Below are positions 15,303 to 33,677 of a stretch of DNA of 64,000 nucleotides, in pieces. A model generated the notes under the pieces. The model searched no databases and was not told where the DNA came from. It worked only from the letters and a program-made list of their open reading frames with translations. Origin of the DNA: Candidatus Gygaella obscura (lineage in GTDB: Bacteria > Omnitrophota > Gorgyraeia > Gygaellales > Gygaellaceae). Position numbers and translations under genes: made by a program. Location of the stretch: NCBI GenBank assembly GCA_030765485.1, contig JAVCCR010000032.1, positions 166,289 to 230,288 of the forward strand, written 5' to 3'. Each line of letters opens with the position of its first letter. Position 1 is the stretch's first letter.

Positions 15303-17036
15303 ATGAATCTATCTGACGTTAGAAAACCGGCAAGATATATTGGCAGGGAATGGAATCTTACAAAAAAGAATTTGGATTCTTGTAAGATAAAGATTGCGCT
15401 TTGTTATCCGGATATGTACGAATTGGGAATGAGTAATCTTGGATTTAGAATTATCTATGGGTTATTGAATAAGCAAAAGGATACTTTTTGTGATAGGGTT
15501 TTTACCCCTACTGATGATTATCTGGAATATTTAAAAAAACAAGAACGTAAATTTGCCGCATTAGACTCTGGGCTTTTATTAAACGAATTCGATATTTTAG
15601 GTTTTTCTTTAGGTTGCGAATTAATCTTTACTAATGTATTGACAGTTCTTTCTCTTGCTGGTTTGCCTTTGCGCAGTTGTGATAGAGATGAAAGTTTTCC
15701 TTTAGTGATTGCCGGAGGGCCATGTGCAGTAAATCCTGAACCGATGAGTGAATTTATCGATCTATTCGTAATTGGCGAGGCAGAAGAGGCAATAAAAGAA
15801 ATTTTAAGTTGTTTTATGAAAAATTCTCATAATAAAAAAGAATTATTAAAAAAGATGTCTTTTATAAAAGGAGTCTATGTGCCTTCACTTTATGAGGTTT
15901 TTTATGATAAAGATGCATCTTTAAATAAAATTATACCCAAACAAAAGAGTGTACCTGCAGAAATTCATAAACGCGTGGTAAAGAATTTTAATAAAAGTTA
16001 TTTTCCTGTTAATTGGGTTGTTCCTTTTATTCAAATCGTACATGATAGAGTATCATTAGAAATTATGCGCGGATGTCCCAACAGTTGTCGTTTTTGCCAG
16101 GCGAGGAATATTTATTTCCCCTTTAGATTAAGAAAGCTAAATACTATAATAGATCTTGCCCGAAAAACATTTAAACACAGCGGCTATGAAGAGATTGGCC
16201 TGTGCGGATTATCTGTAAGTGATCACTATCAGATACGGAAATTGATTAAAAAGCTTGTCGGTTGTTTTAAGGAAAAAGGAGTGTCGCTTTCTTTATCAAG
16301 CATGCGCGCAGATATTCTTCTTGGCGGTTCTTTTTCTGAACTTGCCAGTATAAAAAAAACAGGTCTTACTTTTGCTTTAGAGGCTGCCAGCGAGAGATTG
16401 CAGAAAAAAATAAATAAGAATATCAATATGGATAAGTTTTTTTCTTTGGCCGGTCAAAGTATCGATAAGGGATGGCGGAAGATAAAATTATATTTTATGG
16501 TTGGTTTTCCTGATGAGACAGAGGATGATTTAAAAGGTATTATTGAGATTGTCGATAGGTTGCTTAAAATGAGATCTGAATCAGGAGGTAGATTTATTAA
16601 AATCAATTTAAGCGTTAATCCGTTTATTCCCAAACCGCATACTCCTTTTCAGTGGGTAGGAATGGAGTCAATGGAAAGTTTAAAAGCAAAAAAAATGTTT
16701 TTATTGAAAGGTTTAAATGCGCTTTCTAAGAATAGGATTAATTTTACTTTTCATAATGTTGAAACGAGTTTTTTGGAGGCGGTTCTTTCTCGGGGAGACA
16801 GAAGAGTTTCTAAAGCTATTCTCGCAGCCTGGAATAAGGGAGCAAGATTTGATGCTTGGAGCGAATTTTTTGATTTTAAGATTTGGCAGCAGGCATTTGC
16901 AGAATCTAAGATTGATCCTAATTTATTTGCAAACCGTAATATTGCTTTAAGCGAAAGACTTGCTTGGGATCATATTAAAATCTCACCTAATAAGGCCTTT
17001 CTGGTCAAAGAATTTAAAGACAGTCAAAAATACTAA
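15303..17036 (+). CDS. B12-binding-domain radical SAM protein
   Basis: 577 aa with an N-terminal B12-binding-like domain and a CPNSCRFC (CxxxCxxC) radical SAM cluster. Exact function unknown. Confidence 0.7.
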   Translation: MNLSDVRKPARYIGREWNLTKKNLDSCKIKIALCYPDMYELGMSNLGFRIIYGLLNKQKDTFCDRVFTPTDDYLEYLKKQERKFAALDSGLLLNEFDILGFSLGCELIFTNVLTVLSLAGLPLRSCDRDESFPLVIAGGPCAVNPEPMSEFIDLFVIGEAEEAIKEILSCFMKNSHNKKELLKKMSFIKGVYVPSLYEVFYDKDASLNKIIPKQKSVPAEIHKRVVKNFNKSYFPVNWVVPFIQIVHDRVSLEIMRGCPNSCRFCQARNIYFPFRLRKLNTIIDLARKTFKHSGYEEIGLCGLSVSDHYQIRKLIKKLVGCFKEKGVSLSLSSMRADILLGGSFSELASIKKTGLTFALEAASERLQKKINKNINMDKFFSLAGQSIDKGWRKIKLYFMVGFPDETEDDLKGIIEIVDRLLKMRSESGGRFIKINLSVNPFIPKPHTPFQWVGMESMESLKAKKMFLLKGLNALSKNRINFTFHNVETSFLEAVLSRGDRRVSKAILAAWNKGARFDAWSEFFDFKIWQQAFAESKIDPNLFANRNIALSERLAWDHIKISPNKAFLVKEFKDSQKY

Positions 17037-17064: not shown

Positions 17065-17093
17065 TTGACAAACAAAGGATTATGAAATATAGT
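17065..17093 (+). promoter_or_regulatory. Near-consensus sigma70 promoter (TTGACA-17-TATAGT) heading the T4P/c-di-GMP operon
   Basis: TTGACA at 17065-17070 and TATAGT at 17088-17093. AAGGAGG lies 7 nt before the ATG at 17131. This is the only intergenic gap of about 90 nt or more between rodA and the pilus genes. Confidence 0.5.
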
Positions 17094-17130: not shown

Positions 17131-18534
17131 ATGATTAAATTATTTAAAAAAACCTCTATTTCTTCCCGGGGCTTACGCAGTAAACTGGCTGTTGCTTTTG
17201 CTTTAACTTCGACTATTCCTATACTAATCAGCGTTTATTTATTAACACAAATTACTGATATCTCTAAATTGGATTCACGTATTGGTGTGTTTCTTTTTCT
17301 GAGTCTGGTAATTGCTGTTATCGGCTATTTTGTTTTAAATACTATAGTCAGCTCGATTATTAGAACCAGCAAAAAAGCCAATGCCTATATAAACGGAAAA
17401 ACCTTTGGAGGAATGAAAATTTCCACCGATGATGAGATTTCTGATTTGAATAAAGCTATTGATAAGCTTAACGACCGTATACGCGATAATATGGATAAGC
17501 TAAGTTTTTATGATAAACAAAGCAAGCTTGTAGGTATGGATTTAAACAAAAAAATCATTGCGCTTTCAAGTCTTTTACAGATTGGAAGTTTTATTTCTTC
17601 AACCAATAATATCGATGATATTTTTTCGTTGGTTGTCGGAAAGCTGGCCAATATTGAGTCTAGCTTCGAAGTTTTTTTATTTCTGCATAATAAAAGTAAT
17701 GAGTATACGCTTGATTTTGCATCTAACCAGGAAAAAATTAAATCAAATGTTTTTACCTTATCAACCGATTCAAGAAAAATCGTTCAGGCTATTTCTAGCA
17801 ATGAGCCTTTAAGGCTTGATGTTTCTCGTTCCGAATCAAAAACCCTGGAGCGATTGGGAGAAATATTCAATATCCGCAATATAGTTATCTTTCCTATCTT
17901 TGCCTGCGAGGAGACTAAAGGGATTCTTGTAGTAGGTAGCACTAAAGGAGATTATATTTTTGAAGCATCAGATATTGAGCTTATAAGACTATTTTCTAGA
18001 CAAGTTGCTATTTCACTTGAGAAGAATCAGCTTTTTACCAAGGCAAAAAAACTGGAAGTTAAAGACGGGTTAACTGGTTTATATAATGAGCATTTTATAC
18101 GCAGCCGTCTAGAGGAAGAGATAAAACGTGCATTTATTTCTCAGAGGCCGTGTTCTTTTGTTCTTTTGACTGTAGATAGGTTTCAGGATTATCAGCAGCG
18201 CAAGGGTCAGGATGGTGCGGAGAGTTCTTTAAAACATATCGCTACTTTATTAAAAGAATCTTCTCGCGAGATTGATAAACCAGGACGATTTGGATATTCT
18301 GATTTCGCGATACTGCTTCCTGAAATGAATAAAAAGGAAGCGATTGCTCTAGCGGAAGAGGTTAGACAAAAGGTGGCTTTTATTTTTAAGGAAGAGGAAG
18401 ATGTAAAACTTCGTTTGACAATTTCAGCTGCCGTAAGTGAGAATCCCATAGATGGAATAAAAGCAGAAGAATTGATTATACATGCAAGGAATCTTTTGGC
18501 TAATAAAAACTCAGATAATAAGGTTTTTCGCTGA
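17131..18534 (+). CDS. Membrane-anchored GAF-like / degenerate-GGDEF protein with RxxD I-site retained (putative c-di-GMP receptor)
   Basis: 467 aa with two N-terminal TM helices, a HAMP-like coiled coil and a GAF-like middle domain. The C-terminal GGDEF fold has the active-site motif changed to RFGYSDF, while the upstream REID (RxxD) keeps the canonical spacing. Confidence 0.7.
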   Translation: MIKLFKKTSISSRGLRSKLAVAFALTSTIPILISVYLLTQITDISKLDSRIGVFLFLSLVIAVIGYFVLNTIVSSIIRTSKKANAYINGKTFGGMKISTDDEISDLNKAIDKLNDRIRDNMDKLSFYDKQSKLVGMDLNKKIIALSSLLQIGSFISSTNNIDDIFSLVVGKLANIESSFEVFLFLHNKSNEYTLDFASNQEKIKSNVFTLSTDSRKIVQAISSNEPLRLDVSRSESKTLERLGEIFNIRNIVIFPIFACEETKGILVVGSTKGDYIFEASDIELIRLFSRQVAISLEKNQLFTKAKKLEVKDGLTGLYNEHFIRSRLEEEIKRAFISQRPCSFVLLTVDRFQDYQQRKGQDGAESSLKHIATLLKESSREIDKPGRFGYSDFAILLPEMNKKEAIALAEEVRQKVAFIFKEEEDVKLRLTISAAVSENPIDGIKAEELIIHARNLLANKNSDNKVFR

Positions 18535-18536
18535 TA

Positions 18537-18986
18537 ATGTTTTCTCCATTTAGAAAGGTTGTCAATAAACAATTAGGTGAATTGCTGGTAGAGCATAAGA
18601 TTATAAGTGAGGCGCAGTTGAAGAAGGCGCTAGCTTTGCAAAGCCAGCGTTGCGGTGCTTTGATTGGTGAATTAATAGTAGAGCTGGGTTATGCCAAGGA
18701 AGAAGATATTGCTAATACCTTAGCTGCCCAGTACGGTTTTCCTTATTTGCCTTTGGATAATTATTCTGTTGATGAGAATATCGTAAAACTTATACCGAAA
18801 AATGTTGCAAATCAGTATTGCTTATTAGCGATAGACAAATTGGGTAATTCTATCGTTGTAGCAACAAGTAATCCTTTGAATACTCAGGCGATTGAAGACG
18901 TCGAGTATATAACCAATTGCGATGTCCGTGTTTTTATCAGTACAGCCACGAGCATCAGGGGCAAGATTAAAGAATACTACCAATAG
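18537..18986 (+). CDS. Standalone MshEN / T2SSE_N domain protein (predicted c-di-GMP-binding)
   Basis: 149 aa. QLGELLVEHKIISEAQLKKALALQ matches the MshEN 24-residue c-di-GMP binding motif (LGxxLVxx-IIxxxxLxxxLxxQ). The rest matches the GspE N-terminal domain fold consensus (...YGFPYLPLDNY...). Confidence 0.7.
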   Translation: MFSPFRKVVNKQLGELLVEHKIISEAQLKKALALQSQRCGALIGELIVELGYAKEEDIANTLAAQYGFPYLPLDNYSVDENIVKLIPKNVANQYCLLAIDKLGNSIVVATSNPLNTQAIEDVEYITNCDVRVFISTATSIRGKIKEYYQ

Positions 18987-18989
18987 TAA

Positions 18990-20717
18990 ATGGCAACATT
19001 AAAAGAAAACCTAACTAATATTCTTATTGATAATAGCCTTATTACCCGTGAGAATTTAGAAAAAGCCATTTCTACCCAGAAACAACAAGGCGGCAGTCTT
19101 AGTCAAATTCTTATAGATTCTGGAAATGTAAAAGAAAAAGATCTAGTTATTGCCTTAAGTCAAGGTTTAGGTATTCCTCCTATTAATTTAAATAAAATCA
19201 AAGTTGATAAAAAAGTAGTTAAACTGATATCTAAAGATGTTGCGCAGCGTTATTTAATCCTGCCGATTTCTCAGGTTGGGACAACGTTAACTGTGGCTAT
19301 GGCTGATCCTTTGAACGTTTTTACACTGGATGATCTAAAGGTTCTTACGAATATGAAGATTAATCCTGTGATTACTACGGCTAATGATATCAAAGACGCT
19401 ATCAAGATTTATTATGAACAATCCCAGCAGGTGGATGGTGTTAAAATAGATGATATCATTAAGAATATTTCTTCTCCGGATATAGAGTTAGTTAATGATT
19501 CTGGCAAAACGGAAGAAAATATTAGTTTTATGCATATGATCGATGAGGCACCTATTGTAAAAATAACCAATAGGTTTCTTACTGATGCGGTTAAGCTTAG
19601 CGCAAGCGATATTTTGTTTGAGCCTTTTGAGAAGACAACCCGTGTAAGATGCAGGGTAGACGGCGCCTTAAGAGAAATCGAGACTCTGCCTAAGTATATG
19701 CATGAGGCCATAGTATCGCGTACCAAGGTAATTTCCGGGCTTGATATTTCCGAACATAGGCTTCCTCAGGATGGCCGTTTTAAGATAAAATTCCAGAGTC
19801 GGGAAGTCGATTTTAGAATTTCAATTCTGCCTTCTGTTTTCGGAGAAAAGGTTGCTTTGCGTGTTTTAGATAAAACAACTGCAATGCTTGATGTTGAAAA
19901 GCTTAATTTTTCCGACCATAATTTAAATACCATTAAACATTGTTCTTCTTTCCCGCATGGCATGATGCTTGTCTGTGGTCCTACGGGTTCGGGCAAGACC
20001 ACAACACTTTATTCAATTCTTAAATATGTGGATAGTCCTGAAAAAAATATTGTAACTGTAGAAGATCCTGTAGAATATCAGCTTAATGGAGTAAATCAGG
20101 TTACTTGTCGGATTGATATTGGTTTGACATTTGCTGCGGCCTTACGTTCAATATTAAGACAAGACCCTGATATTATTATGGTTGGTGAGATTAGAGATTT
20201 TGAGACTTTGGATATATCCATAAAATCAGCTCTTACAGGGCATATGGTTTTAAGTACACTTCATACTACTACTGCTTCTGGGTCTATAATTAGGATGTTG
20301 AATATGGGGGCAGAACCTTTTTTGATTACGTCCTGCGTAGTGGGTATTATTGCTCAAAGATTGGTGCGTAAGCTTTGTCCGAAATGTAAAGAATCATATA
20401 AGCCATCAAAGGCGGTTTTGGATACTTTAAGCATAAAAGACGATATTAATGAAAATGTTAATTTTTGTCGGCCTAAAGGTTGCCCGGAATGTTTTAATGT
20501 CGGGTACCGCGGAAGAATTGCTATTTGTGAAGTACTTGTATTAACCCATGAAGTAAAGGGTTTGATTTTAAAGCGGGCGCAGGAACATCAGATAAAAAAA
20601 ATGGCTAGGTCTCAAGGGATGCGTACGTTAAGAGAAGATGGGATAGATAAGATAATTACCGGATTAACTACACCAGAGGAAGTTTTAAAGGTAACCGCTT
20701 CAGACGCAAAGGCTTAA
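18990..20717 (+). CDS. pilB: Type IV pilus assembly ATPase PilB/GspE (paralogue 1)
   Basis: 575 aa with an N-terminal MshEN-like domain. Walker A GPTGSGKTT, Asp box VEDPVEYQL, Walker B DPDIIMVGEIRD, His box TGHMVLSTLHT, and a tetracysteine CPKC...CPEC zinc motif. Confidence 0.9.
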   Translation: MATLKENLTNILIDNSLITRENLEKAISTQKQQGGSLSQILIDSGNVKEKDLVIALSQGLGIPPINLNKIKVDKKVVKLISKDVAQRYLILPISQVGTTLTVAMADPLNVFTLDDLKVLTNMKINPVITTANDIKDAIKIYYEQSQQVDGVKIDDIIKNISSPDIELVNDSGKTEENISFMHMIDEAPIVKITNRFLTDAVKLSASDILFEPFEKTTRVRCRVDGALREIETLPKYMHEAIVSRTKVISGLDISEHRLPQDGRFKIKFQSREVDFRISILPSVFGEKVALRVLDKTTAMLDVEKLNFSDHNLNTIKHCSSFPHGMMLVCGPTGSGKTTTLYSILKYVDSPEKNIVTVEDPVEYQLNGVNQVTCRIDIGLTFAAALRSILRQDPDIIMVGEIRDFETLDISIKSALTGHMVLSTLHTTTASGSIIRMLNMGAEPFLITSCVVGIIAQRLVRKLCPKCKESYKPSKAVLDTLSIKDDINENVNFCRPKGCPECFNVGYRGRIAICEVLVLTHEVKGLILKRAQEHQIKKMARSQGMRTLREDGIDKIITGLTTPEEVLKVTASDAKA

Positions 20718-20721
20718 TAAT

Positions 20722-22443
20722 ATGGTTAAATCATTAAGAGATAAAATTCTTGATTTTTTACTTGAGGAAAAACGGATTACAAGAAGCGATATAGAGAGGT
20801 TTTCTAAGCTTCAGGAGCAAAGCAATCTTAAGATTGAAGCTATTTTGATTGATAATGCTATAATTTCTGCACAGGAGTATTTGTCTATGCTGGCAAAAGA
20901 AACTAATACTCCAGTAGTATGTCTTGAAAAAATAGATTGTGATCCGGAAATTTTAAATATTATTCCTGAAAGGATATGTCAGCAGTATAGTATTTTTCCT
21001 GTTGCAAAATTGGGGAATCTTTTAACTTTGGCTATGTCAGATCCAATGAATATTTTTGCTATGGATGATATAAAGTCTTTAACTTCTTTAGAAATCAATA
21101 CAATTTTAGCCAGCGAAGAAGATATTAAAAAGAATATACAGTTTTGGTATGAGGAGTCAAAGAATAAGGATATATCTGAACTTATCGGAGAAGTCAATGA
21201 AGATGAAATAAATGTAGTCGGAGAAGGAAAAAAGAGAGAATTTGAGGGCCAGTTTGATTTAGACAGAGCAATGCTTGAAGCTGAAAAGTCTCCTGTTATC
21301 AAACTTGTTAATCTTATGCTTTCAGAGTCATATCAGAAAAGGGCATCGGATATTCATATTGAACCAGAAGAGGATTTTTTAAGAGTTCGTTACAGAATTG
21401 ATGGAATGTTGCATGATGCTTATCAGATACCGAAAGATAAGCAGAATGCCGTAATTACACGTTTAAAAATAATGTCTAATTTGGATATTACGGAGTTCCG
21501 TATTCCTCAGGACGGTCGTTTTAAAATCCGTTTGGGTCAGAATGAAGTGGATTTCCGTGTTTCCATATTACCGATCAGTTTTGGGGAAAAGGTAGTTTTG
21601 CGTTTATTGGATAAACGTAATCTTTCGATTGGTTTGGAAAAGTTGGGGTTTTTAGCTGAGCCCATGCAGAAATTCAGAGATTGTATCAATAAACCTTATG
21701 GGATGATTCTTGTAACTGGTCCTACTGGTTCTGGTAAATCGACTACGCTTTATTCGATTATCAATCAGCTCAATACTCCTACGACGCATATAATTACTGT
21801 TGAGGACCCGGTAGAGTATCAGATCGAAGGTATAGCCCAGATTCCGGTTAAGCCGGATATTGGTCTTACGTTTTCAGCAGGTTTGAGAGCACTTTTGCGT
21901 CAGAGTCCTGATATTATATTAATTGGTGAGATTAGAGATTCTGAAACTGCAGATATTTCCGTTAAGGCATCTTTGACGGGGCAGATGGTTTTATCTACGT
22001 TACATACCAATGATGCCGCAGGGGCTATAACTCGACTTATTGATATGGGGGTAGAGCCGTTTTTGGTTTCTTCAAGTTTAATCATGACTTGTGCTCAGAG
22101 ATTAAGTAGAAAGATTTGTAGTAATTGCAAGGCAGAATATAAACCTGATCCGACTGTAGTGAAAAATCTGGGAATAAAATTAGAAAAAGGTTCAGTTCTT
22201 TATCACGGAAATGGATGTTCTCATTGTAATAATACAGGTTACCGTGGTAGAATAGGGACAATTGAAGTTTTGGTTATTGACGATAAGATTAGGGAGATGA
22301 TTATTGAAAGAGTTTCATCTGATGAAATCCGTGATTATGCTGTAACCCAGGGCATGGAGACATTGAGGGACAATGGCATTCGTCAGGCTCTCATAGGTTT
22401 AACTACCTTAGAAGAGGTTTTAAGGATAACCTCAGAGGAATAA
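20722..22443 (+). CDS. Type IV pilus/T2SS ATPase PilB/GspE (paralogue 2)
   Basis: 573 aa with the same architecture as paralogue 1 (GPTGSGKSTTLYS, VEDPVEYQI, TGQMVLSTLHT, CSNC...CSHC). Full-length, with an N-terminal T2SSE_N domain. It is not a PilT. Confidence 0.9.
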   Translation: MVKSLRDKILDFLLEEKRITRSDIERFSKLQEQSNLKIEAILIDNAIISAQEYLSMLAKETNTPVVCLEKIDCDPEILNIIPERICQQYSIFPVAKLGNLLTLAMSDPMNIFAMDDIKSLTSLEINTILASEEDIKKNIQFWYEESKNKDISELIGEVNEDEINVVGEGKKREFEGQFDLDRAMLEAEKSPVIKLVNLMLSESYQKRASDIHIEPEEDFLRVRYRIDGMLHDAYQIPKDKQNAVITRLKIMSNLDITEFRIPQDGRFKIRLGQNEVDFRVSILPISFGEKVVLRLLDKRNLSIGLEKLGFLAEPMQKFRDCINKPYGMILVTGPTGSGKSTTLYSIINQLNTPTTHIITVEDPVEYQIEGIAQIPVKPDIGLTFSAGLRALLRQSPDIILIGEIRDSETADISVKASLTGQMVLSTLHTNDAAGAITRLIDMGVEPFLVSSSLIMTCAQRLSRKICSNCKAEYKPDPTVVKNLGIKLEKGSVLYHGNGCSHCNNTGYRGRIGTIEVLVIDDKIREMIIERVSSDEIRDYAVTQGMETLRDNGIRQALIGLTTLEEVLRITSEE

Positions 22444-22444
22444 A

Positions 22445-25400
22445 ATGCAAAAAGATTTAATTATCTATATTGATGAGTTGACCGAACTTTACAATAGAAG
22501 ATATCTTTCCCAGGTTTTTCCCAAGGAACTTAAAAAAGCTCAGGAAAAAAATTACAGTCTTTGGTTTTTTATGATGGATTTAGATAATTTTAAAGGCATC
22601 AATGATACCTTGGGTCATTTGGCCGGAGACGATGCTTTAAAAAGTCTCGCGGTGGTTTTGAAAAAGAATATGCGCGAGCAGGATATACTTTTTCGTTATG
22701 CAGGTGATGAATTTTCCGCAATTATCCCCGGTGGTACGCTTTCTGATGTTCTGGCGGTAGCTAAAAGAATTCTAGAAAACGTTGCCAGGTCCTCTTTTGG
22801 CAGTAATCCTATGCAGCCGGCAATGAAATTCACGGTTAGTATCGGTATTTCTTGTTTTCCTGAAGATGCAGTCGATACCCTGCGTTTGATTGATTTGGCT
22901 GACAAAGCCCTTTATGTATCGAAAAGAAAAGGTAAAAATCATATTTCCGTCGTTAGCGATGTGCCTCCAGAAGTTTTAAGTCTGTATCAGATTTTAGAAA
23001 AATTTCCTTGTCCTGTTTTTATCGATAGAGTAGAAGAATTAAACCAGCTTTTTAAAGCTACAGACGAATTTATAGCGCATAAAAAGAAAAAGAACATTTT
23101 TATATTCGGAAATTCCGGAATAGGAAAGACAAGGATTTTACATGAGTACGGAAAGAGAATTTCCAGTAAAAACATAAGCTTGATAGTTTCGCACGCAAAC
23201 GAAAAAGACATTTTTACAAATTATCATATTTTTATCGATGGTATTAGCGATTATTTCAAGACGCATAGTTTTCAGATGGAACTGCTGGAAGGTTTAGATG
23301 ATAAGGCTAAGTCAATTTTGGTAGGTTTTATTCCGGATTTGAAACGATTCGTAAGCGTTTCCGATACAGAACTTAAAAATCTTTCTGGTAAATCAATTAA
23401 GGATGAAGAAATAAAGATTATTTTCAAGAAATTTATTTCTAATATATGCAAAAAGCATTCTTTGTGTTTTGTGGTTGATGACCTGCAGTGGACAGATAAG
23501 GCAAGTTTGGATTTATTAAAGGAATTTAATTCCATAGAAGAAAGTCTGATGGTTATTGCTGCGGTTTCTAATGATTATGTTGTGCAAAAGGATAACCTTG
23601 TTCCTTTAAGCGATTTTATAACTAAGCATAGTTTATCTTTTGAGAGGCTTGATGTTAAACCATTTGAAAAAGAACAGGCTGCTAAGATGGTTAATGCTGT
23701 TTTTAATTCTTTGGATAATTTGAACGAATTTACATCGTTGTTATTTTCTGTTACCAAGGGTTCACCTTTATTTATTGAAGAGCTTCTAAAGTATTTTATA
23801 AATCGTGGTTTTGTTTTTTATCGTAAAGGAAAATGGGGTTGGTTGGATATAAGAAAAGAAGATCTTCCTTCAAGTATAGAAGAAGTCGTTGCTCAGCGTA
23901 TAAAATCTTTAAGTTCTGAATTAAAAGAGGTCATTACTCAGGCATCTGTAATCGGAGAGGGTTTTGAATTAAATCTTCTTCAGAAGTTAGGTAAAAAGAA
24001 TCAGGGCTATCTTATGGATTTGATTGAAACCGCCAAGAAATCTGGTCTTATCAGGGAGGAAAAAGGAGCTGAAGGCACCAGATTTGTTTTTACTAGTGCA
24101 AAAGTAAAGGATGTTTTATATGGTTTGGCAGATAAAAATGAAATTAAAAATCTTAACCGACAGATCGGACAGATAAAAGAAGAGATTTATAAAGGTAATG
24201 AAGATCAGGTTGCCGGCGAGTTATACTATCGATTTAAAAAGGCAGAAGATGAAAAGAAAGCTACTCGTTATGCAAAGATGGTTAAAGAAGGCCGTTCTTT
24301 TGTTTATGAAAAGAGTATTCATTTTGCCAAGGGTCTTCTGGAAGAAGTACAGGTTACTGAACAGGAAATTCCTGATAAGGTAATTGATGGAGTTTCTGAT
24401 ATTGTACGTCTTATTTATGTTTCCCAAATTAACAGCAGTCTTTATCCAAAGGGCAGCTCCATGCGTACTCAACCTTTGGCAGATTTGATTTCAAAACTAA
24501 AGAATATCTTTGAATATGTTTTGGTGGTAAGTTTTAGTCATTTTAATGAATTTTTAGTTGTTAATAATCGGATTTACGATAATGAGAGCCTTAAGGGAAC
24601 ATTTAGGAATGCATTTATTGGTCTTTTAAAGCAGAACAAGATTGAAAAAATTTCTTTTTTCCCTAGTTTAAGCGTAGAGGAGTTGGAGAATTTTTTAGAA
24701 TTGTTTGAATCAAGTGAAAAAGAAATATTCAAGAATAAATTTAATCAAGAAGAATTTGCTAATATAAAGGTAGAGTATTTAAGTTATGAGAACTATCTTT
24801 CCAAAAGGACCAAAGACAGAGAGCAGTTGCAGGATATTATGCTTTTGGATTATCTTTTAGGTAAAGTTCCTGGAGAAGGCATAGGGGGCAAGATGGATAT
24901 TCTTGATAAAATCCAGACACATAGTCAGGATATAGCTTCTGCTCTTACCAAGATGGCGGATAAAGTTAGCAAGCAAAAAGGAGTTGATAAGGATTCGGCA
25001 AGGGCAGATATACTTTCTGATAATTTTAAGAAAATATCTCAGCATATATTTAATAAAGGAGAAGGGGCCTGGGATAAGTATAAGAAAGGGCTTGCCAATA
25101 CAATACTTTCACTTGAACCTAATCTGCGCGATGAGGTTTTACATAAACAACTTGAAGAGGATAAGAAAAATGCCGCGCTTGAAAATAATCAGTCTGCTTC
25201 TGATACATCCGAAGAAGCTGTTTCTTTTGATAATACAGATGAATCGACTGGTAATTTAAAAAAAGATGCTTTGAAAGATCAGCCGCAGCAGGATATTATC
25301 AAGGCCTTAGCAGGAGAATTTCCCGAAGATGTTGTTCTGGATTTGATAAAGAAGGAATATAAAGATGGCGACAATAGCCCCGAGCAGTTTAAAGAGATAG

Positions 25401-26608
25401 TTCTAAAATTCTTGCCTGAAGATAATGACCAGAAAAAAACCTTGATGGATAAGATTAGTAAGCTTTTAAAAGAAGAAGGGGCTTCGGAAGAAGAGTTGAA
25501 GTTTCTTACTCAGGAAGAATTCTGGCCAAAACTTGGATTTAGTGAAAAGATTATAGATTTTATGAATATGGCTTCAGATAGATATGTATATATTTCCAAC
25601 AAATACGGGTTTAATCCGGTTATGGAGTTTGCGCTTTCTTCAGAGACAGGAGAGGTTAAAAAAATACTTGAACGCTTGGTTTATTTTATTGAGTCGGATA
25701 GCTTAGAAGCAAAAAAGATAGCCAAGCAGGACCTTCTGTCCTTGATTGATCTGGTGTTTACTTATAAGAAAAGCGAATTTTTAGAATTGTTAATTAATAC
25801 ATTTATCGCTGAATTGCGCAAAGAGCATAATGAAGAAACTACCAGTATATTTATTAATCATATTGAAAAACTTACTTATGTTGTTTTTTCTATGGCAGCT
25901 TTTGATTTATTCTCCAAAGTAATTAATGAATTAAAAAAACTTGTTGCAGAAGATAACACTTCCGAAGATATGAAGGCAAATCTCAGTTTGGTTTTATCTC
26001 ATATTTGCTCAGATGAAATAGTTCAACGATTGATTGAAAGATTATTTAATTATGTTGATAGCAATGAGGATTATTCTCAAATTATTCAGATTTTTGTTGC
26101 CATCGGTAAGCAGGCAGCGAATAGATTGATTGATGAGGCAATGTTTGAGAAAAACATAAATGTTGTAGGTTATTTCGGCGGATACCTTAGAAGAAAGGCT
26201 GTCGGTAATATTTTAAATATGATGGATAAAAATGATGTTATGGAGTTTATAAAAAATAGACTTCAAAACGAGAAGTGGTTTATTGTACGCAATACAATTG
26301 ATTTAATTATGCATATAGATAATCCTGAGTATATTTTACTTCTTGGAATCGTGAAAGATAATAACGATTCGCGCGTAAGAAGAAAACTGCTTTTTGTTTT
26401 GGGTAGGTTTAAGAGCAAGCAGGCATTGGATATTTGTTATTCTCTGGCTAATGACCGTGATGATGCTATTGCTATGGGTTCGATAAAGCTGATTGCTTCT
26501 ATTGGAGATAAAGATTCTCTTGATTTTTTGAACAATTTATCTGTAAAACATTCCTTGCGTGATGAGAAAAATAAAGCTATTGAAGAGCTGAAAGAAAGGT
26601 TAAAATAA
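22445..26608 (+). CDS. Large multidomain signalling protein: GGDEF (RYAGDEF, I-site REQD) - AAA16/STAND-type P-loop NTPase - helical/HEAT-like repeats
   Basis: 1387 aa. Residues 1-175 form a GGDEF fold (DLDNFKGINDTLGHLAGD...RYAGDEF...KALYVSKRKGKN). Walker A is FGNSGIGKTR and Walker B is LCFVVDDLQWTDKASLDLL, the AAA_16/STAND signature. The C-terminal ~250 aa are HEAT/PBS-like repeats (DSRVRRKLLFVLGRF...NDRDDAIAMGSIKLIASIGD). It is translationally coupled to pilB2 upstream and to the MshEN gene downstream. Confidence 0.7.
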   Translation: MQKDLIIYIDELTELYNRRYLSQVFPKELKKAQEKNYSLWFFMMDLDNFKGINDTLGHLAGDDALKSLAVVLKKNMREQDILFRYAGDEFSAIIPGGTLSDVLAVAKRILENVARSSFGSNPMQPAMKFTVSIGISCFPEDAVDTLRLIDLADKALYVSKRKGKNHISVVSDVPPEVLSLYQILEKFPCPVFIDRVEELNQLFKATDEFIAHKKKKNIFIFGNSGIGKTRILHEYGKRISSKNISLIVSHANEKDIFTNYHIFIDGISDYFKTHSFQMELLEGLDDKAKSILVGFIPDLKRFVSVSDTELKNLSGKSIKDEEIKIIFKKFISNICKKHSLCFVVDDLQWTDKASLDLLKEFNSIEESLMVIAAVSNDYVVQKDNLVPLSDFITKHSLSFERLDVKPFEKEQAAKMVNAVFNSLDNLNEFTSLLFSVTKGSPLFIEELLKYFINRGFVFYRKGKWGWLDIRKEDLPSSIEEVVAQRIKSLSSELKEVITQASVIGEGFELNLLQKLGKKNQGYLMDLIETAKKSGLIREEKGAEGTRFVFTSAKVKDVLYGLADKNEIKNLNRQIGQIKEEIYKGNEDQVAGELYYRFKKAEDEKKATRYAKMVKEGRSFVYEKSIHFAKGLLEEVQVTEQEIPDKVIDGVSDIVRLIYVSQINSSLYPKGSSMRTQPLADLISKLKNIFEYVLVVSFSHFNEFLVVNNRIYDNESLKGTFRNAFIGLLKQNKIEKISFFPSLSVEELENFLELFESSEKEIFKNKFNQEEFANIKVEYLSYENYLSKRTKDREQLQDIMLLDYLLGKVPGEGIGGKMDILDKIQTHSQDIASALTKMADKVSKQKGVDKDSARADILSDNFKKISQHIFNKGEGAWDKYKKGLANTILSLEPNLRDEVLHKQLEEDKKNAALENNQSASDTSEEAVSFDNTDESTGNLKKDALKDQPQQDIIKALAGEFPEDVVLDLIKKEYKDGDNSPEQFKEIVLKFLPEDNDQKKTLMDKISKLLKEEGASEEELKFLTQEEFWPKLGFSEKIIDFMNMASDRYVYISNKYGFNPVMEFALSSETGEVKKILERLVYFIESDSLEAKKIAKQDLLSLIDLVFTYKKSEFLELLINTFIAELRKEHNEETTSIFINHIEKLTYVVFSMAAFDLFSKVINELKKLVAEDNTSEDMKANLSLVLSHICSDEIVQRLIERLFNYVDSNEDYSQIIQIFVAIGKQAANRLIDEAMFEKNINVVGYFGGYLRRKAVGNILNMMDKNDVMEFIKNRLQNEKWFIVRNTIDLIMHIDNPEYILLLGIVKDNNDSRVRRKLLFVLGRFKSKQALDICYSLANDRDDAIAMGSIKLIASIGDKDSLDFLNNLSVKHSLRDEKNKAIEELKERLK

Positions 26609-26610
26609 TA

Positions 26611-27081
26611 ATGCCTTTTAAAAGACAGTCGATATATAAGAAGCAATTATTGGGCCAGATTTTTTTAAAAAGCGGGATTATCTCTAAGGAGCAGCTTAAG
26701 GAAGCGCTTGAAACACAGAAAAAAGAGGGTGGGTTTTTAGGAAGCGTATTGATTAAGCTTGGTTATTTGACTGAGATGGATTTGGTTACAGGTTTGTCTA
26801 GCCAGTGCAGTATACCTTATTTGCCGCCTCAAAGATATAAAATACCGAAAAGTGTTTCTGAAATCATGACTGAGGATTTTTTAAGAGAGAATAGTTTTGT
26901 TCCTATTGATAAATTTCACGATACTCTGACAGTTTGTATGGTTAATCCTTTAAATGATCGGGCAATAAGCGAGATTTCACGAGTTAGCAATATGGAAGTT
27001 CTTGCCTGTATTGCCACAAAGGAAGAAATAGAAAAAACAATTAATAGCTTATTTAAGAAAAATTCTAAAAATGGATTGTAA
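26611..27081 (+). CDS. Standalone MshEN / T2SSE_N domain protein (second copy)
   Basis: 156 aa. LLGQIFLKSGIISKEQLKEALETQ is an excellent match to the MshEN c-di-GMP binding motif. Downstream is ...CSIPYLPPQRY..., as in GspE N-domains. Confidence 0.7.
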   Translation: MPFKRQSIYKKQLLGQIFLKSGIISKEQLKEALETQKKEGGFLGSVLIKLGYLTEMDLVTGLSSQCSIPYLPPQRYKIPKSVSEIMTEDFLRENSFVPIDKFHDTLTVCMVNPLNDRAISEISRVSNMEVLACIATKEEIEKTINSLFKKNSKNGL

Positions 27082-27143: not shown

Positions 27144-28349
27144 ATGCCACAATTTAAATATTACTCAAAAGACAAAAAAGGAGCTTCTGTAAATGGTATC
27201 CTTGAAGCGGAAAATAAAAACGTTGTAATTGAAGAATTAAGGCGTAGGCAGTTAACTATCATTACCTTAAAGGAAGTAAAGAAGGCCTTTAGTTTTGGTG
27301 GTAAGAAAAAGGTTTCTTCGGATGATTTGGTTATTTTCTCCCGTCAGTTAGCCACAATGGTAAATTCTGGCATACCGTTAGTTCAGTCTTTGGATATTCT
27401 AGGTGAACAACTTGATAATAAGCAATTCCGTTCGATAATTATGACTATTAGAGATGATATACAGACAGGTCTTAGCTTATCCGGTGCGTTTGCAAAACAC
27501 CCCAGTGTTTTTTCTACACTTTACATAAACATGGTAAAAGCTGGGGAGACTTCTGGTATGCTTGATGAGATTTTAGATCGGCTTGCTATCTACTTGGAAA
27601 AGTCCAATTCTTTAAAAAAGAAGATAATGGCAGCTATGATTTATCCTGCTTTGGTTTTTAGTATGGCGATAATAATCACTTCCGGTCTTTTGATTTTCGT
27701 TGTCCCTCAGTTTAAATCGATTTTTAGTTCTTTTGGCGGCAAACTTCCATTACCTACGGTTATTTTAATCGCTATAAGTGATAATTTTGCAAAGATTATA
27801 CCTTCTTTGATTGTGCTAATAATTATTACTGCGGTTGTATTTTCCCGGGTCATTAAAACTCCGAAAGGAAGATTCAAATTTGATCAGTTTAAGCTAAAAG
27901 TGTTTATTTTCGGTAAGATGTTTCAGATGGTGGCAGTAAGTAGGTTTTCTAGGACATTATCTACGTTAGTCAGAAGCGGCGTTTCTATTTTAACTGCCTT
28001 AGATATAGTTTCTAAAACAACGGGAAATAAAGTTATTGAACAGGCATTGGATAATGTAGGTGCTAATATAAAAGAAGGTAAATCCATTGCTTTGCCTTTG
28101 GCTGAGGCTAAGGTTTTTCCTCCTATGGTTGTAAGGATGATTTCTGTAGGTGAGCAGTCAGGAGAGTTAGAAAAGATGCTTACTAAGATCTCTGATTTTT
28201 ATGATGAACAGGTGGATATTGCCGTATCTGGACTTTCCAGCGTAATAGAGCCTGTAATTATTATATTTTTAGGTCTTGTTATTGGCTCAATCGTTATTGC
28301 CATATTCTTGCCGATATTGAAGATGTCTTCTCTTGTCGGAGGAATGTAA
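27144..28349 (+). CDS. pilC: Type IV pilus platform protein PilC (GspF family)
   Basis: 401 aa with two GspF repeats and 3 TM segments. Characteristic blocks are SRQLATMVNSGIPLVQSL and MISVGEQSGELEKML. Confidence 0.9.
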   Translation: MPQFKYYSKDKKGASVNGILEAENKNVVIEELRRRQLTIITLKEVKKAFSFGGKKKVSSDDLVIFSRQLATMVNSGIPLVQSLDILGEQLDNKQFRSIIMTIRDDIQTGLSLSGAFAKHPSVFSTLYINMVKAGETSGMLDEILDRLAIYLEKSNSLKKKIMAAMIYPALVFSMAIIITSGLLIFVVPQFKSIFSSFGGKLPLPTVILIAISDNFAKIIPSLIVLIIITAVVFSRVIKTPKGRFKFDQFKLKVFIFGKMFQMVAVSRFSRTLSTLVRSGVSILTALDIVSKTTGNKVIEQALDNVGANIKEGKSIALPLAEAKVFPPMVVRMISVGEQSGELEKMLTKISDFYDEQVDIAVSGLSSVIEPVIIIFLGLVIGSIVIAIFLPILKMSSLVGGM

Positions 28350-28353
28350 AAGG

Positions 28354-28824
28354 ATGAAGAAAAGTTTTTCTCTTATAGAGCTGGTGTTTGCTCTTGGGAT
28401 ATTGGCTCTTGTGGCAGCGACTTTTATGATGAGTTTTGCTAATTACTCTAATCTTAATGAAACTAATATAAATATTAATTTAGCTACCATAAAGGCAAAG
28501 TCTATTGCTGAAGAGCTGATTTCAATCAATGATTCTGATCAGGGGCATTTGAAGACTGCAAAAAATGCCTGTGGTACTATGAAAGTAGTGGAAAGCGGTG
28601 AATTAACCGGTGTGGGCCAATCCGGAACCGGTATATACTCAGTGTTGGTAAAATGTTTAAAAAATTCCAGTGGAACTAGTTGTTTGGATCAGACATTTGA
28701 TGTAAGTGTAATAGTTTGTTGGGTGCAGTCAAACGGCAGATTGATTGGTATAAGAGACGATGATAATGAAGAATGTACGGTTTCTAATTACGGGTATAAT
28801 ACTAGCTTTACTACTGATAATTAA
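28354..28824 (+). CDS. Prepilin-type N-terminal domain protein (pilin/pseudopilin candidate)
   Basis: MKKS|FSLIELVFALGILALVAATFM has a class-III signal-peptide-like N-terminus with Glu at +5 and Phe at +1, but Ser rather than Gly at -1. It is a small secreted protein with a Cys pair in the C-terminal region. Confidence 0.5.
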   Translation: MKKSFSLIELVFALGILALVAATFMMSFANYSNLNETNININLATIKAKSIAEELISINDSDQGHLKTAKNACGTMKVVESGELTGVGQSGTGIYSVLVKCLKNSSGTSCLDQTFDVSVIVCWVQSNGRLIGIRDDDNEECTVSNYGYNTSFTTDN

Positions 28825-28827
28825 GTT

Positions 28828-29442
28828 ATGATATTGAACAAAAAAATTAGATCTAACAAGGCTTTTAGTATATTAGAATTAGTTACATCAATGACGATTT
28901 TTTCATTTTTGACTATATTTTTGTTTTCCGGCATTATCACTGTGCGTAATATCTGGCTGAAGTCTTCAGCTAAATTAAAGCTTACGGATGAATTGACCAA
29001 CGCTTTTGAGGTTATGAAAAATGATTTGTCTTATGCTGTTTCGAACAGGCTGAAGGTTTCGTCGTTATCAGCCGATTACTGCGCTGCAACTAGCGCCAGT
29101 AGCGGAGTTTTGATTTTATTCCCAGTACCTACCGTAATCAGCGGAAGTTATTTTAGTAGTTCCGGTAGTGTGCAAATAGGTTGTGATGGAGATAGCAATA
29201 AAAGAATCAGGTATAGGGTTGATGGTAAAAAGTTACTTAGAGAGATAGTCAGTGCAACTTCACCCTGCCATGCGCATGAGACGAAAGCCTTGGTTTATAA
29301 TATGGATACTGATTCTCCTATTGGATTTAGTTTTGACGGTACATATAAAACTTTAACCATTACTATGAATTTAGAAGATAGCGATTTTCAGGATAATGAG
29401 GTTGTCTTAAGTTTCGAGGAGACAGTTTATCTAAGGAATTAA
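28828..29442 (+). CDS. Prepilin-type N-terminal domain protein (second pilin/pseudopilin candidate)
   Basis: ...NKA|FSILELVTSMTIFSFLTIFLF has Phe at +1 and Glu at +5, with Ala at -1, followed by a hydrophobic helix. Confidence 0.45.
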   Translation: MILNKKIRSNKAFSILELVTSMTIFSFLTIFLFSGIITVRNIWLKSSAKLKLTDELTNAFEVMKNDLSYAVSNRLKVSSLSADYCAATSASSGVLILFPVPTVISGSYFSSSGSVQIGCDGDSNKRIRYRVDGKKLLREIVSATSPCHAHETKALVYNMDTDSPIGFSFDGTYKTLTITMNLEDSDFQDNEVVLSFEETVYLRN

Positions 29443-29452
29443 AAAGGAAATG

Positions 29453-32038: not shown

Positions 32039-32048
32039 TTTTTAATTA

Positions 32049-32702
32049 ATGGCGCAGATAAATCTTTTACAGACAAGGATGGTTTTAAAGACAAAAAAAG
32101 CCAAGGCGCAAAATGGTGCAGGTAGCGCTAAGGGTTTTAATTTTGATTTTAAGATAAATTTCAGAAGAATGCCCCGCTGGTTTTTTATAATTGCTATTGG
32201 CTGGATTGCGTTTTTATTTATCGGTGAAACTGTATTGCTTTTGCGTCTGAGTGGTGAGAAGAAGAAATTAAGAATTTTAGAAACCGAAGGAACTCTTTTT
32301 TCAAAGAGCCCTAAGGAATTGAGTGCTTTAAAGAAAAGAAAAAAAAGCATGCAGGATGCTTTAGGTATTATTGAGAGTTTTTTGATTACCAAAACACCGT
32401 TTTCGCAGGCGCTAAATATTATCAGTGATGAAGTAGTTGATGGTCTTTGGCTCGAGAAGATATTTTTTAATTCTAAAAAAATTGATAAAGATAACGATCA
32501 AATAATTATAAAGATAAACGGTAAGGTTTATTCAGTAATTGCCCAAGAACAGATTGATATTCTGGGACAGTTTTCTAGTGGTTTAAAAAATAATCCTTAT
32601 TTTGAGTTATTATTTAGTGGTCTAAAGGTAGGCAATCTTAAAAATGTAAATTTTCTTGGTTTTGATGTGTTGGATTTTGAGATGGAGGTAACTTTAAAAT
32701 AA
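32049..32702 (+). CDS. pilN: Type IV pilus inner-membrane alignment protein PilN
   Basis: N-terminal MAQINLLQTR (the INLL hallmark of PilN), a single TM (WFFIIAIGWIAFLFIG), then a periplasmic domain. Confidence 0.6.
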   Translation: MAQINLLQTRMVLKTKKAKAQNGAGSAKGFNFDFKINFRRMPRWFFIIAIGWIAFLFIGETVLLLRLSGEKKKLRILETEGTLFSKSPKELSALKKRKKSMQDALGIIESFLITKTPFSQALNIISDEVVDGLWLEKIFFNSKKIDKDNDQIIIKINGKVYSVIAQEQIDILGQFSSGLKNNPYFELLFSGLKVGNLKNVNFLGFDVLDFEMEVTLK

Positions 32703-32707
32703 GGCAT

Positions 32708-33289
32708 ATGGATTTCGATATTAAACAAATTATTGATTGGGCTAAGTTGCGCAAAGTAGAACTGATTCTGCTTAGCGTGTTATTTTTGATAAGTACTGTA
32801 TTGTCTTTCTTGCTATTTCAACCGCAGGCAAGAAAAATCATGCAGTCTCAAGAGAATCTTAAAGCAAGCACAAAAGATACTAGTAATCTGCGTACGGCAC
32901 AGGTTGAGTTAGCTAATTTGAAAAAAGAGATTATTTCTATCGAGGAGAAATTAGTAAGCCACGAGGGAAAACTTTTTTCTCAGGAAGACTCGCAGGCATT
33001 TTTAAATTATATCAACCGGATTTCAAAGTTTTATAACGTGAGGATTCAAAAGATTAATCCACTTTCACAGGTAAAGAAGGAAGTGAAATCTCTTGATAAG
33101 ATTTATTTAGCTTCTCCTTATCGGTTGAGTTTAACTTGCAGTTATCATAATCTGGGTAAATTCTTAAATAAATTGGAGCAGTCAAAAGATAGGTTTGTTA
33201 GGGTTGATAGTCTTTCCGTACAGGCTGATAGTTCTAAGACAAGAGAGCATAAAGTTGAGCTGGGGATAACTATTTTTTCCATAATGTGA
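32708..33289 (+). CDS. pilO: Type IV pilus protein PilO-like
   Basis: 193 aa with an N-terminal TM, a coiled coil and a ferredoxin-like C-terminus. Position after pilN. Confidence 0.5.
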   Translation: MDFDIKQIIDWAKLRKVELILLSVLFLISTVLSFLLFQPQARKIMQSQENLKASTKDTSNLRTAQVELANLKKEIISIEEKLVSHEGKLFSQEDSQAFLNYINRISKFYNVRIQKINPLSQVKKEVKSLDKIYLASPYRLSLTCSYHNLGKFLNKLEQSKDRFVRVDSLSVQADSSKTREHKVELGITIFSIM

Positions 33290-33290
33290 G

Positions 33291-33677
33291 ATGAAAAGAA
33301 TAATTATAATATTTTTGGTTTTGATTTTAACTTCAATTTGTCTTGCAGAAGAAAATGCTTTTGAAGAAAGATTGAGTTTTAAGTATAATGATAATGATAA
33401 GCGTGATCCGTTGATCCCTTTACTTGATAAAGATGGTTTACGTCCTAAATCAGAGTTGTTTGAGAAGGCAGAGCTGCCTATAGAAATAAATTTATCAGGT
33501 ATTGTTTGGAATAAAGATGTGCAATTTGCTATAATAAATGGTAAAATAGTAAAAGAAAATGAAGAAGTTGCAAGAGGGTTGATTTTAGAAAAAATAAATC
33601 TTGAAAGCGTCGTCTTGGAGTATGGAGAAAGAAGCACTACTATATATATAGGAGGCCCCAAGAAGGATGGTAAGTAG
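33291..33677 (+). CDS. pilP: PilP-like pilus assembly protein
   Basis: 128 aa with a signal peptide, the KRDPLIP motif (the RDPF-type motif of PilP), and a C-terminal beta domain. Position between pilO and pilQ. Confidence 0.5.
   Translation: MKRIIIIFLVLILTSICLAEENAFEERLSFKYNDNDKRDPLIPLLDKDGLRPKSELFEKAELPIEINLSGIVWNKDVQFAIINGKIVKENEEVARGLILEKINLESVVLEYGERSTTIYIGGPKKDGK

Follow-up and report, generated by a model that had tools for sequence, protein, structure and literature searches.

A pseudo-cyclase and a free-standing MshEN protein, a candidate c-di-GMP receptor, at the head of a conserved type IVa pilus operon in Omnitrophota

Bacteria of the phylum Omnitrophota are uncultivated and mostly ultra-small, and are presumed to live as predators or parasites. 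A role as the organelle of host contact has been proposed for their type IVa pilus (PMC10066038). A locus of the omnitrophotan Candidatus Gygaella obscura raises the question of how this pilus might be controlled by the second messenger cyclic di-GMP (c-di-GMP). The locus lies in a stretch of 64,000 nucleotides, called the window below, and all coordinates are window positions on the plus strand. Its pilus operon opens with a membrane-anchored HAMP-GAF-GGDEF protein of 467 amino acids whose cyclase domain is degenerate (17131-18534; the pseudo-cyclase), followed by a free-standing MshEN protein of 149 amino acids (18537-18986; free MshEN 1). An original prediction, made from the letters of the DNA, held that both proteins are c-di-GMP receptors. 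Which of the two, if either, would read the ligand, and what would the pair do for the pilus? We find that the two genes occur together as a conserved pair, and that this pair stands first in the type IVa pilus operon of about 80 other species of Omnitrophota. Our judgement tilts, by a modest degree, towards a reading in which the pseudo-cyclase and a trans-acting c-di-GMP receptor, the free MshEN protein, together make up the regulatory head of this operon. From the domain identities, the loss of catalytic residues, the conservation of motifs, the synteny and the phylogenetic distribution, all of which are observed, we infer binding, partners and the direction of regulation.

The small protein is the natural place to begin. 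Free MshEN 1 matches Pfam PF05157 at 60.1 bits (cut-off 23.1), the N-domain of Vibrio cholerae MshE (5HTL) at E = 1.2e-15, and the NCBIfam model NF053729, named 'c-di-GMP_motif, MshE-related', at 55.2 bits (cut-off 38), where residues 12-65 span the whole profile (positions 1-53 of 53). Scores of this size lie far outside what chance would give; the second-best NCBIfam match is the NfrB model. The AlphaFold model of the protein has a predicted local distance difference test (pLDDT) score of 85.8 and consists of a four-helix bundle (residues 13-19, 25-37, 43-49 and 55-66) and a C-terminal alpha/beta subdomain. Its best structural match is 5HTL, the structure of MshE with c-di-GMP, at a template modelling (TM) score of 0.79-0.83. 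The earlier claim that this open reading frame encodes a complete, free-standing MshEN domain with binding motifs is therefore borne out by Pfam, by the structural match and by NF053729, a curated hidden Markov model on which the protein scores well above the cut-off.

The MshEN motif has been defined as RLGxx(L/V/I)(L/V/I)xxG(L/V/I)(L/V/I)xxxxLxxxLxxQ, occurring twice with a five-residue spacer (PMC5013675), and an extended consensus, taken from the GSPII-B domain of Thermus thermophilus PilF, admits R, K or L at position 1 (PMC11731258). Our residue-by-residue comparison of free MshEN 1 with these definitions rests on alignments to PilF GSPII-B and to Myxococcus xanthus PilB, on the NCBIfam motif model and on the structural match. 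Motif I, QLGELLVEHKIISEAQLKKALALQ (residues 12-35; 18570-18641), agrees at 9 of the 11 specified positions and deviates at position 1, which is Q instead of R, K or L, and at position 10, which is K instead of G. The assertion that this N-terminal helix fits the MshEN motif thus stands for the conserved Leu, Gly and Gln residues and fails at positions 1 and 10. The obligatory second motif, of which the original prediction made no mention, is also present. Motif II, LIGELIVELGYAKEEDIANTLAAQ (residues 42-65; 18660-18731), follows a six-residue spacer, SQRCGA, and fits well, with Gly at position 10 and a position-1 Leu (L42) that aligns with L196 of PilF GSPII-B. The motif residues are L13, G14, L28, L32 and Q35 in the first copy and I43, G44, I58, L62 and Q65 in the second.

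These features can be judged against the phylum as a whole. In a pattern scan with each species represented by one genome, at least 577 genomes proved to encode a relative of free MshEN 1, and the best 80 of these, among them the complete Ca. Velamenicoccus archaeovorus LiM genome, were used for a comparison of loci. In nearly all 80 loci the genes are arranged in the order rodA, a radical-SAM gene, the pseudo-cyclase, MshEN (about 149 amino acids), PilB, PilB, an optional gene and PilC. The pseudo-cyclase gene is the immediate neighbour of the free MshEN gene in 67 of 75 loci (median gap about 4 nucleotides), and in seven loci an ATPase the size of PilT (about 355 amino acids) lies between them. 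Two tandem PilB-type ATPases of about 570 amino acids are found in most Omnitrophota loci (18990-22443 in the window; loci L002-L082).

Among 79 orthologues of free MshEN 1, Gly3 of both motifs is present in every protein, and L2, L17 or I17, L21 and Q24 are nearly invariant. Position 1 of motif I is Gln in 68 of the 79 and stands behind an invariant Lys, while position 1 of motif II is Leu in all of them. Position 10 of motif I is Gly in 54 and Lys in 18, and the spacer measures five residues in 76, a length of six being confined to the clade of the window. The Gln at position 1 is thus a conserved feature of the family, and the Lys at position 10 and the extra spacer residue are lineage or minority traits. 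The C-terminal subdomain, with its segments QYGFPYLPL, SNPLN and FVSTS, is as invariant as the motifs. On these sequence comparisons free MshEN 1 is likely to be a c-di-GMP receptor, and this interpretation is much better supported than the original prediction could know, the Gln of motif I notwithstanding.

The clearest result of the analysis is the contrast between MshEN domains that are free and intact and those that are fused to ATPases and degenerate. A single profile served to align the free MshEN proteins with the first 170 residues of PilB1 and PilB2, all taken from the same loci. Both Gly3 residues are present in 79 of 79 free proteins, but in none of 79 PilB1 N-domains and none of 63 PilB2 N-domains. 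In PilB1, an extension-type ATPase (575 amino acids at 18990-20717 in the window; Pfam T2SSE and MshEN), the glycines have given way to Thr (motif I) and Ser (motif II), and the second motif has also lost its Q24. In PilB2 (573 amino acids at 20722-22443, identified by Pfam) the typical replacements are Ile or Leu in motif I and Arg or Lys in motif II; the window copy has L and E at these positions, and scores 24.2 bits on NF053729, under the cut-off of 38. The backbone amides at the MshEN glycines read the Hoogsteen edge of guanine, the substitutions G11L and G40I in MshE abolish c-di-GMP binding, and in XpsE binding has been lost by way of changes that include G11V and G40L (PMC5013675). As for position 1, PilF GSPII-B binds c-di-GMP at 6 nM without any arginine, having Lys and Leu there, and its K167L variant, with Leu at both position-1 sites, binds at 2 nM (PMC11731258).

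The same contrast extends to overall conservation. Mean pairwise identity across 55 species is 67% for free MshEN and 66-69% for the PilB ATPase cores, compared with 56% and 46% for the two PilB N-domains. In a phylogenetic tree the free proteins form a clade of their own, apart from the PilB N-domains (79 tips, with 79 under their common ancestor), and for this reason we regard free MshEN as an ancient paralogue of the PilB N-domain and not as a gene fragment. The possibility that it is a recent fragment or pseudogene of PilB was considered and rejected, since the protein is monophyletic over 79 species and as conserved as the ATPase cores, its reading frame differs from that of the upstream gene, and gap lengths vary among species.

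A further line of evidence comes from the slot between PilB2 and PilC. REC-HD-GYP is the domain type of c-di-GMP phosphodiesterases, and such a gene occupies the slot in about 29 of some 51 loci. Four loci carry instead a gene for a cyclase of 1387 amino acids together with a second MshEN gene, and about 18 have nothing in this place. Because an HD-GYP protein or a cyclase fills the slot in most species, the operon is tied to c-di-GMP metabolism in most of them. In the window the large protein (22445-26608) is, according to Pfam, a GGDEF-AAA_16 (STAND-type NTPase)-HEAT protein. Its GGDEF domain has the signature RYAGDEF and an REQD motif at the product-inhibition site (I-site), and in ungapped alignment with solved cyclases all catalytic residues are present except for G368A; it is thus probably an active diguanylate cyclase. 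The cyclase gene is found only in the window and in loci L003, L065 and L082, and it is always paired with the second MshEN gene. In the window the latter (free MshEN 2; 156 amino acids at 26611-27081) is recognized by Pfam MshEN and by NF053729 (58.8 bits), and its product is 30% identical to free MshEN 1. Its motifs, LLGQIFLKSGIISKEQLKEALETQ and FLGSVLIKLGYLTEMDLVTGLSSQ, match 10 and 9 of the 11 specified positions and are separated by a spacer of five residues, KKEGG. The second free MshEN, the AGDEF cyclase, the degenerate MshEN domains of PilB and the conservation across the phylum all go beyond what the original prediction contained.

The first protein of the operon requires a different treatment. 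The product of 17131-18534 has the same sequence (100% identity) as a protein of Ca. Gygaella obscura with the public annotation 'diguanylate cyclase'. Pfam recognizes GGDEF at 81 bits (E = 1e-22) in residues 312-458 (18064-18504), and both GAF_2 (32.4 bits) and GAF (27.8 bits), each exceeding its cut-off, in residues 159-297 (17605-18021). In the AlphaFold model (pLDDT 80.7) a pair of hydrophobic helices at the N terminus leads into a HAMP-like helix-loop-helix and a long signalling helix, after which come the GAF and GGDEF domains. By the secondary structure of the model, the hydrophobic helices comprise residues 12-40 and 49-87, with a loop of about 8 residues between them, and are followed by the HAMP-like connector and by the signalling helix of residues 100-157 (17164-17601 in all). 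Pfam HAMP (PF00672) is precomputed for most orthologues; the window protein is not matched at an E value of 0.01. The structural neighbours of the model are cyclases of the type sensor-coiled-coil-GGDEF, such as a phytochrome-linked cyclase, Dcsbis, DgcR, WspR and PleD. Membership of the PelD family was examined and rejected, as Pfam PelD_GGDEF gives no match at E values up to 0.01 and PelD is absent from the top 50 structural matches. The pseudo-cyclase resembles PelD, likewise a transmembrane-GAF-GGDEF protein, in architecture only.

The phmmer alignment of the pseudo-cyclase with PleD is ungapped from the beta-strand before D327 to beyond R392. The sequence SSREIDKPGRFGYSDF contains REID, then KPGRF, then GYSDF. 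Of these, REID (residues 379-382; 18265-18276) is aligned on R359-A-I-D362 at the I-site of PleD, and GYSDF (residues 388-392; 18292-18306), which replaces GG(D/E)EF, on G368-G-E-E-F372; R366 of PleD is retained. Relative to PleD the protein carries the replacements D327T, K332Q, N335Q, D344E, G369Y, E370S and E371D, and the position of R390 is Glu. Two structural claims of the original prediction are upheld by this comparison. The protein is non-catalytic, with the signature GYSDF as described and a loss of residues that reaches beyond it, and an RxxD motif lies at the canonical position of the I-site, five residues before that of GG(D/E)EF, in an alignment in which there are no gaps to displace it.

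The loss of catalysis is not peculiar to Gygaella. Homologues of the pseudo-cyclase number in the hundreds, are about 471 amino acids long and come almost exclusively from Omnitrophota. We compared 75 orthologues that occupy the same operon position in different Omnitrophota species and, separately, 120 homologues from databases. The combination of D327, N335, D344 and GG(D/E)E occurs in none of the 75 orthologues, and the family is therefore one of pseudo-enzymes throughout. Position 344 has become Glu in 62 of the 75, N335 is retained in five, and the signatures include GDDEF, GDNEF, ADDEF, GGDEF, SGDEF, EDGVF, SEDVY and others. Three motifs are invariant in the family: QRPC ahead of the first strand, LPExNK behind the signature and SENPxDG close to the C terminus (residues 339-341, 396-401 and 436-442 of the window protein). 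They lie outside both the active site (A-site) and the I-site and may mark a functional surface. Their conservation suggests a role that is neither catalysis nor the binding of product.

The retention of an RxxD motif led the original prediction to conclude that the pseudo-cyclase keeps its I-site and is hence a c-di-GMP receptor. If this were correct, the operon would begin with two receptors, one binding through its RxxD I-site in the manner of PelD, CdgA, PopA and SgmT, the other through its tandem MshEN motifs. We regard this as a possible but doubtful arrangement. It is consistent with the ungapped placement of REID on R359-D362 and the retention of R366, and it has a precedent in CdgA of Bdellovibrio, which combines GVNEF with RxxD and binds c-di-GMP with a dissociation constant of about 2 uM (PMC3271064). 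Moreover, the I-site Arg is common to the four closest homologues, down to 43% identity, and orthologues with RxxD have lost the residual xx[DN]EF more often than those without it (9 of 10 versus 24 of 65; Fisher p = 0.004, uncorrected for phylogeny), which could mark a shift to the I-site. We find this association intriguing and suggestive, but not conclusive, and since shared ancestry is not corrected for, we do not build upon it.

However, the distribution of the motif argues against a receptor function that is general to the family. RxxD is present in only 10 of the 75 syntenic orthologues, which belong to about six scattered lineages, and in 6 of the 120 database homologues. Thr or Ser replaces the I-site Arg in 53 of the 75, whereas Asp362 is kept in 64, so that a single substitution to Arg suffices to create RxxD. 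On a neighbour-joining tree the ten RxxD tips require at least six changes, and the state at the root is inferred as 'absent'. At the counterpart of PleD R390 the family has acidic residues or Asn, with E, D or N in 97 of the 120 homologues, and the C-terminal AKxxGKNRV segment of the window protein is degraded as well. The R390 residue, whose counterpart in PelD is R402, is not universal among I-sites, as WspR has Lys there. Given the rarity of RxxD, the number of changes and a residue other than Arg at the R390 position, I-site binding is not what conserves this family, and the claim that the pseudo-cyclase is a receptor because it keeps its I-site is not supported. Binding of c-di-GMP at the I-site of the Gygaella protein itself is possible on the basis of its residues. 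Its RxxD is lineage-specific and may add a second c-di-GMP input, which would not be a conserved function of the family.

These considerations shape the mechanism that we favour for the pair. The pseudo-cyclase almost certainly makes no c-di-GMP. Its most likely role would be that of a dimer at the inner membrane which takes in signals or serves as a scaffold. Produced from the same transcript, just upstream of free MshEN, it could supply sensory input through its HAMP and GAF modules or serve as a docking site. Free MshEN would be the receptor of the operon, binding c-di-GMP in its four-helix bundle and, by way of its conserved C-terminal subdomain, acting in trans on PilB hexamers or on the PilM/PilC platform. 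Such action would gate pilus extension, both PilB MshEN domains being without the glycines that read guanine. The local level of the ligand might be set by the enzyme that the operon encodes, which is the AGDEF cyclase in Gygaella and the REC-HD-GYP protein in most other Omnitrophota.

Several observations weigh against this proposal. The Gln of motif I, found in 68 of 79 orthologues, fits neither the relaxed motif of Wang 2016 ([RKPN]) nor the R/K/L of the extended consensus, and the window protein has in addition the Lys at position 10 and the six-residue spacer. A near-consensus sequence is no guarantee of function, as PilF GSPII-A fails to bind c-di-GMP for subtle structural reasons (PMC12002112). 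The PilB1 of the window still passes NF053729, with 44.2 bits against the cut-off of 38, in spite of the changes from Gly to Thr and Ser. About 18 of the 51 loci are without a c-di-GMP enzyme in the operon. Finally, the only pointer to an interaction of free MshEN with PilB or with the pseudo-cyclase is the adjacency of their genes.

Such points leave room for an explanation in which neither protein binds c-di-GMP, which we consider unlikely. Free MshEN would then be a structural adaptor or decoy, comparable to XpsE or to PilF GSPII-A, that docks PilB hexamers to PilM/PilC or competes with the N-domains of PilB, and the pseudo-cyclase would be a plain membrane scaffold. MshEN folds do serve as protein interfaces. 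For example, the PilB N-domain of Xanthomonas, which is among the best structural matches, binds PilZ (7LKO), and the N1 domain of GspE binds GspL (2BH1, 4PHT). An adaptor would also agree with a C-terminal subdomain as invariant as the motifs and with a non-canonical Gln at position 1 of motif I, and GSPII-A offers the precedent of a near-consensus protein that does not bind. Nevertheless, it is only in the free paralogue that the positions contacting the ligand (L2, G3, L17, L21 and Q24 in each motif) are invariant; in PilB copies of the same fold they have decayed, and structural constraint alone would not single out two glycines. The presence of HD-GYP or GGDEF enzymes in the same operon in most species, and an NF053729 score for free MshEN 1 well over the cut-off, argue in the same direction. 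The weakest alternative, that the pseudo-cyclase is still an active diguanylate cyclase and REID its product-inhibition site, agrees with the public annotation and with best structural matches that are real cyclases, but it was dropped as a candidate after the residue-by-residue alignment with PleD and we hold it to be extremely improbable, because the metal ligands (D327T, E370S), the guanine-binding residues (N335Q, D344E) and the second glycine (G369Y) are all replaced and no orthologue among the 75 has the full catalytic set.

The preferred reading, in which free MshEN acts in trans beside a non-catalytic membrane protein, can be carried further, to an evolutionary scenario that we offer only tentatively. 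Omnitrophota may have moved c-di-GMP sensing off the pilus motor, leaving two PilB motors with dead sensors, and a switch formed by free MshEN and the HAMP-GAF pseudo-cyclase may load these motors or select between them. In Gygaella the pseudo-cyclase might then have regained its I-site and the operon gained a cassette of cyclase and MshEN, giving a self-contained local circuit for a pilus used in predation or attachment. The probabilities that we attach to these various readings were each estimated on their own and partly overlap.

A comparison with systems already described helps to define what is unusual here. V. cholerae MshE (5HTL, PMC5013675), the best structural match, shares the fold, the tandem 24-residue motifs with Gly3, Leu and Gln, and the association with a type IV pilus. 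However, the MshEN domain is the N terminus of the ATPase in that system and a separate protein of 149 amino acids in this one; the residues at motif position 1 are Arg and Arg there but Gln and Leu here, with the six-residue spacer in Gygaella; and Asp108 of MshE appears, to judge from alignment offsets, to be Asn (in SNPLN) in free MshEN 1. PilF of T. thermophilus (GSPII-B structure 8PDK, PMC11731258) is similar in its arginine-free recognition of c-di-GMP, in the position-1 Leu of motif II (L196, equivalent to L42) and in having several MshEN copies per pilus motor of which only some bind ligand. It differs in that its three copies reside in one polypeptide, whereas the intact copies here are separate genes and the fused copies are degenerate, and in that position 1 of motif I is Lys in GSPII-B and Gln here.

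The closest functional analogy is the FimX-PilZ-PilB complex of Xanthomonas (7LKM/7LKO), in which control of the type IV pilus falls jointly to a degenerate protein resembling c-di-GMP enzymes, a small adaptor and the N-domain of PilB. In that complex the degenerate EAL domain reads the ligand and the adaptor is a non-binding PilZ protein. The Gygaella arrangement has neither an EAL domain nor a PilZ protein, and the putative site lies on the small protein itself, whose partners are putative as well. PelD of Pseudomonas aeruginosa and CdgA of Bdellovibrio are likewise non-catalytic GGDEF proteins with RxxD five residues before the signature, but they differ from the pseudo-cyclase in that its RxxD is not conserved among orthologues, its counterpart of R390/R402 is Glu and it has a HAMP module. 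CdgA acts at the prey-contact pole of the predator Bdellovibrio (PMC3271064).

Outside the secretion ATPases MshEN is already known as a portable c-di-GMP sensor, and free MshEN is similar to such proteins in this respect. One of them is NfrB, reportedly the subject of work by Junkermeier and Hengge in 2021. Other non-ATPase proteins in which MshEN occurs include fusions to REC, HD-GYP, CheA and kinase domains (PMC5013675). In all of these MshEN is fused to an output domain, whereas the protein described here has no fused output and adjoins ATPases that carry a degenerate copy. The individual parts are thus familiar, namely MshEN receptors, degenerate GGDEF proteins and control of PilB by c-di-GMP. 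What we did not find described is a free, intact MshEN beside motors whose own MshEN is dead, with a pseudo-cyclase at the head of the operon throughout the phylum. The literature that we found on stand-alone MshEN proteins and on c-di-GMP or pilus regulation in Omnitrophota does not describe the gene pair, although this coverage is incomplete and novelty is unproven. The main survey of the Omnitrophota discusses type IVa pili and makes no mention of GGDEF, PilB or diguanylate cyclases (PMC10066038).

If free MshEN is indeed a c-di-GMP receptor, it would be a clear case of an MshEN domain that acts in trans on a secretion-type ATPase, Gln would join the binding consensus at motif position 1, and there would be a testable handle on how Omnitrophota switch their pilus on. 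The results also bear on annotation. Hundreds of public entries for Omnitrophota 'diguanylate cyclases' almost certainly correspond to proteins that make no c-di-GMP. An RxxD motif seen beside a degenerate GGDEF in one protein should count as weak evidence of receptor function if the orthologues do not share it.

The layout of the window agrees with the view that the pilus operon opens with the genes for the pseudo-cyclase and the 149-residue protein, a claim of the original prediction that both gene order and a promoter-like gap endorse. Upstream lie mreB, mreC, a gene of the PBP2 type, rodA and a radical-SAM gene, and the entire region is on the plus strand. The gap of 94 nucleotides before 17131 holds the best sigma-70-like site of the region, TTGACA-17 nt-TATAGT (17065-17093), which matches the consensus at 11 of 12 positions; as a consensus match it is a candidate promoter, and its location fits an operon start at the pseudo-cyclase gene. 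An AAGGAGG Shine-Dalgarno-like sequence stands just 5' of the ATG of this gene. The gene closes with a TGA whose last base is 18534, and the ATG of the following gene begins at 18537, so that the two genes are 2 nucleotides apart; they are read in different frames. Downstream of free MshEN 2 follow the platform protein PilC (27144-28349; Pfam T2SSF) and genes for pseudopilins, PilO, the secretin, a TPR protein and PilM (28333-37920; Pfam N_methyl, PilO, Secretin and PilM_2).

Several features of the neighbourhood deserve mention in their own right. In most Omnitrophota loci the pseudo-cyclase gene is directly preceded by the radical-SAM gene, which in the window occupies 15303-17036 and encodes Radical_SAM_N2 and Radical_SAM domains, and the linkage of cell-shape genes (mreBCD-pbp2-rodA) to the pilus operon is conserved in most loci. 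Among the pseudopilin genes, 29450-32038 encodes a protein of 862 amino acids with an N-terminal hydrophobic helix and no Pfam match, a candidate for a large minor pilin or tip adhesin. A Cpn10-like gene (37929-38315) directly follows pilM. Beyond it, phosphotransacetylase is seemingly split between an AAA_26 and DRTGG gene (38317-39405) and a PTA_PTB gene (39405-40337), with acetate kinase next (region 38317-41398). Nearly all long open reading frames of the window, and every one with a Pfam match, are on the plus strand over positions 1-64000, and each 2-kb bin shows a positive GC skew (+0.13 to +0.27), a very strong strand bias. An open reading frame of 165 amino acids at 48564-49061 covers only positions 1-147 of a 427-position amino-acid permease model and may be a truncated gene or pseudogene.

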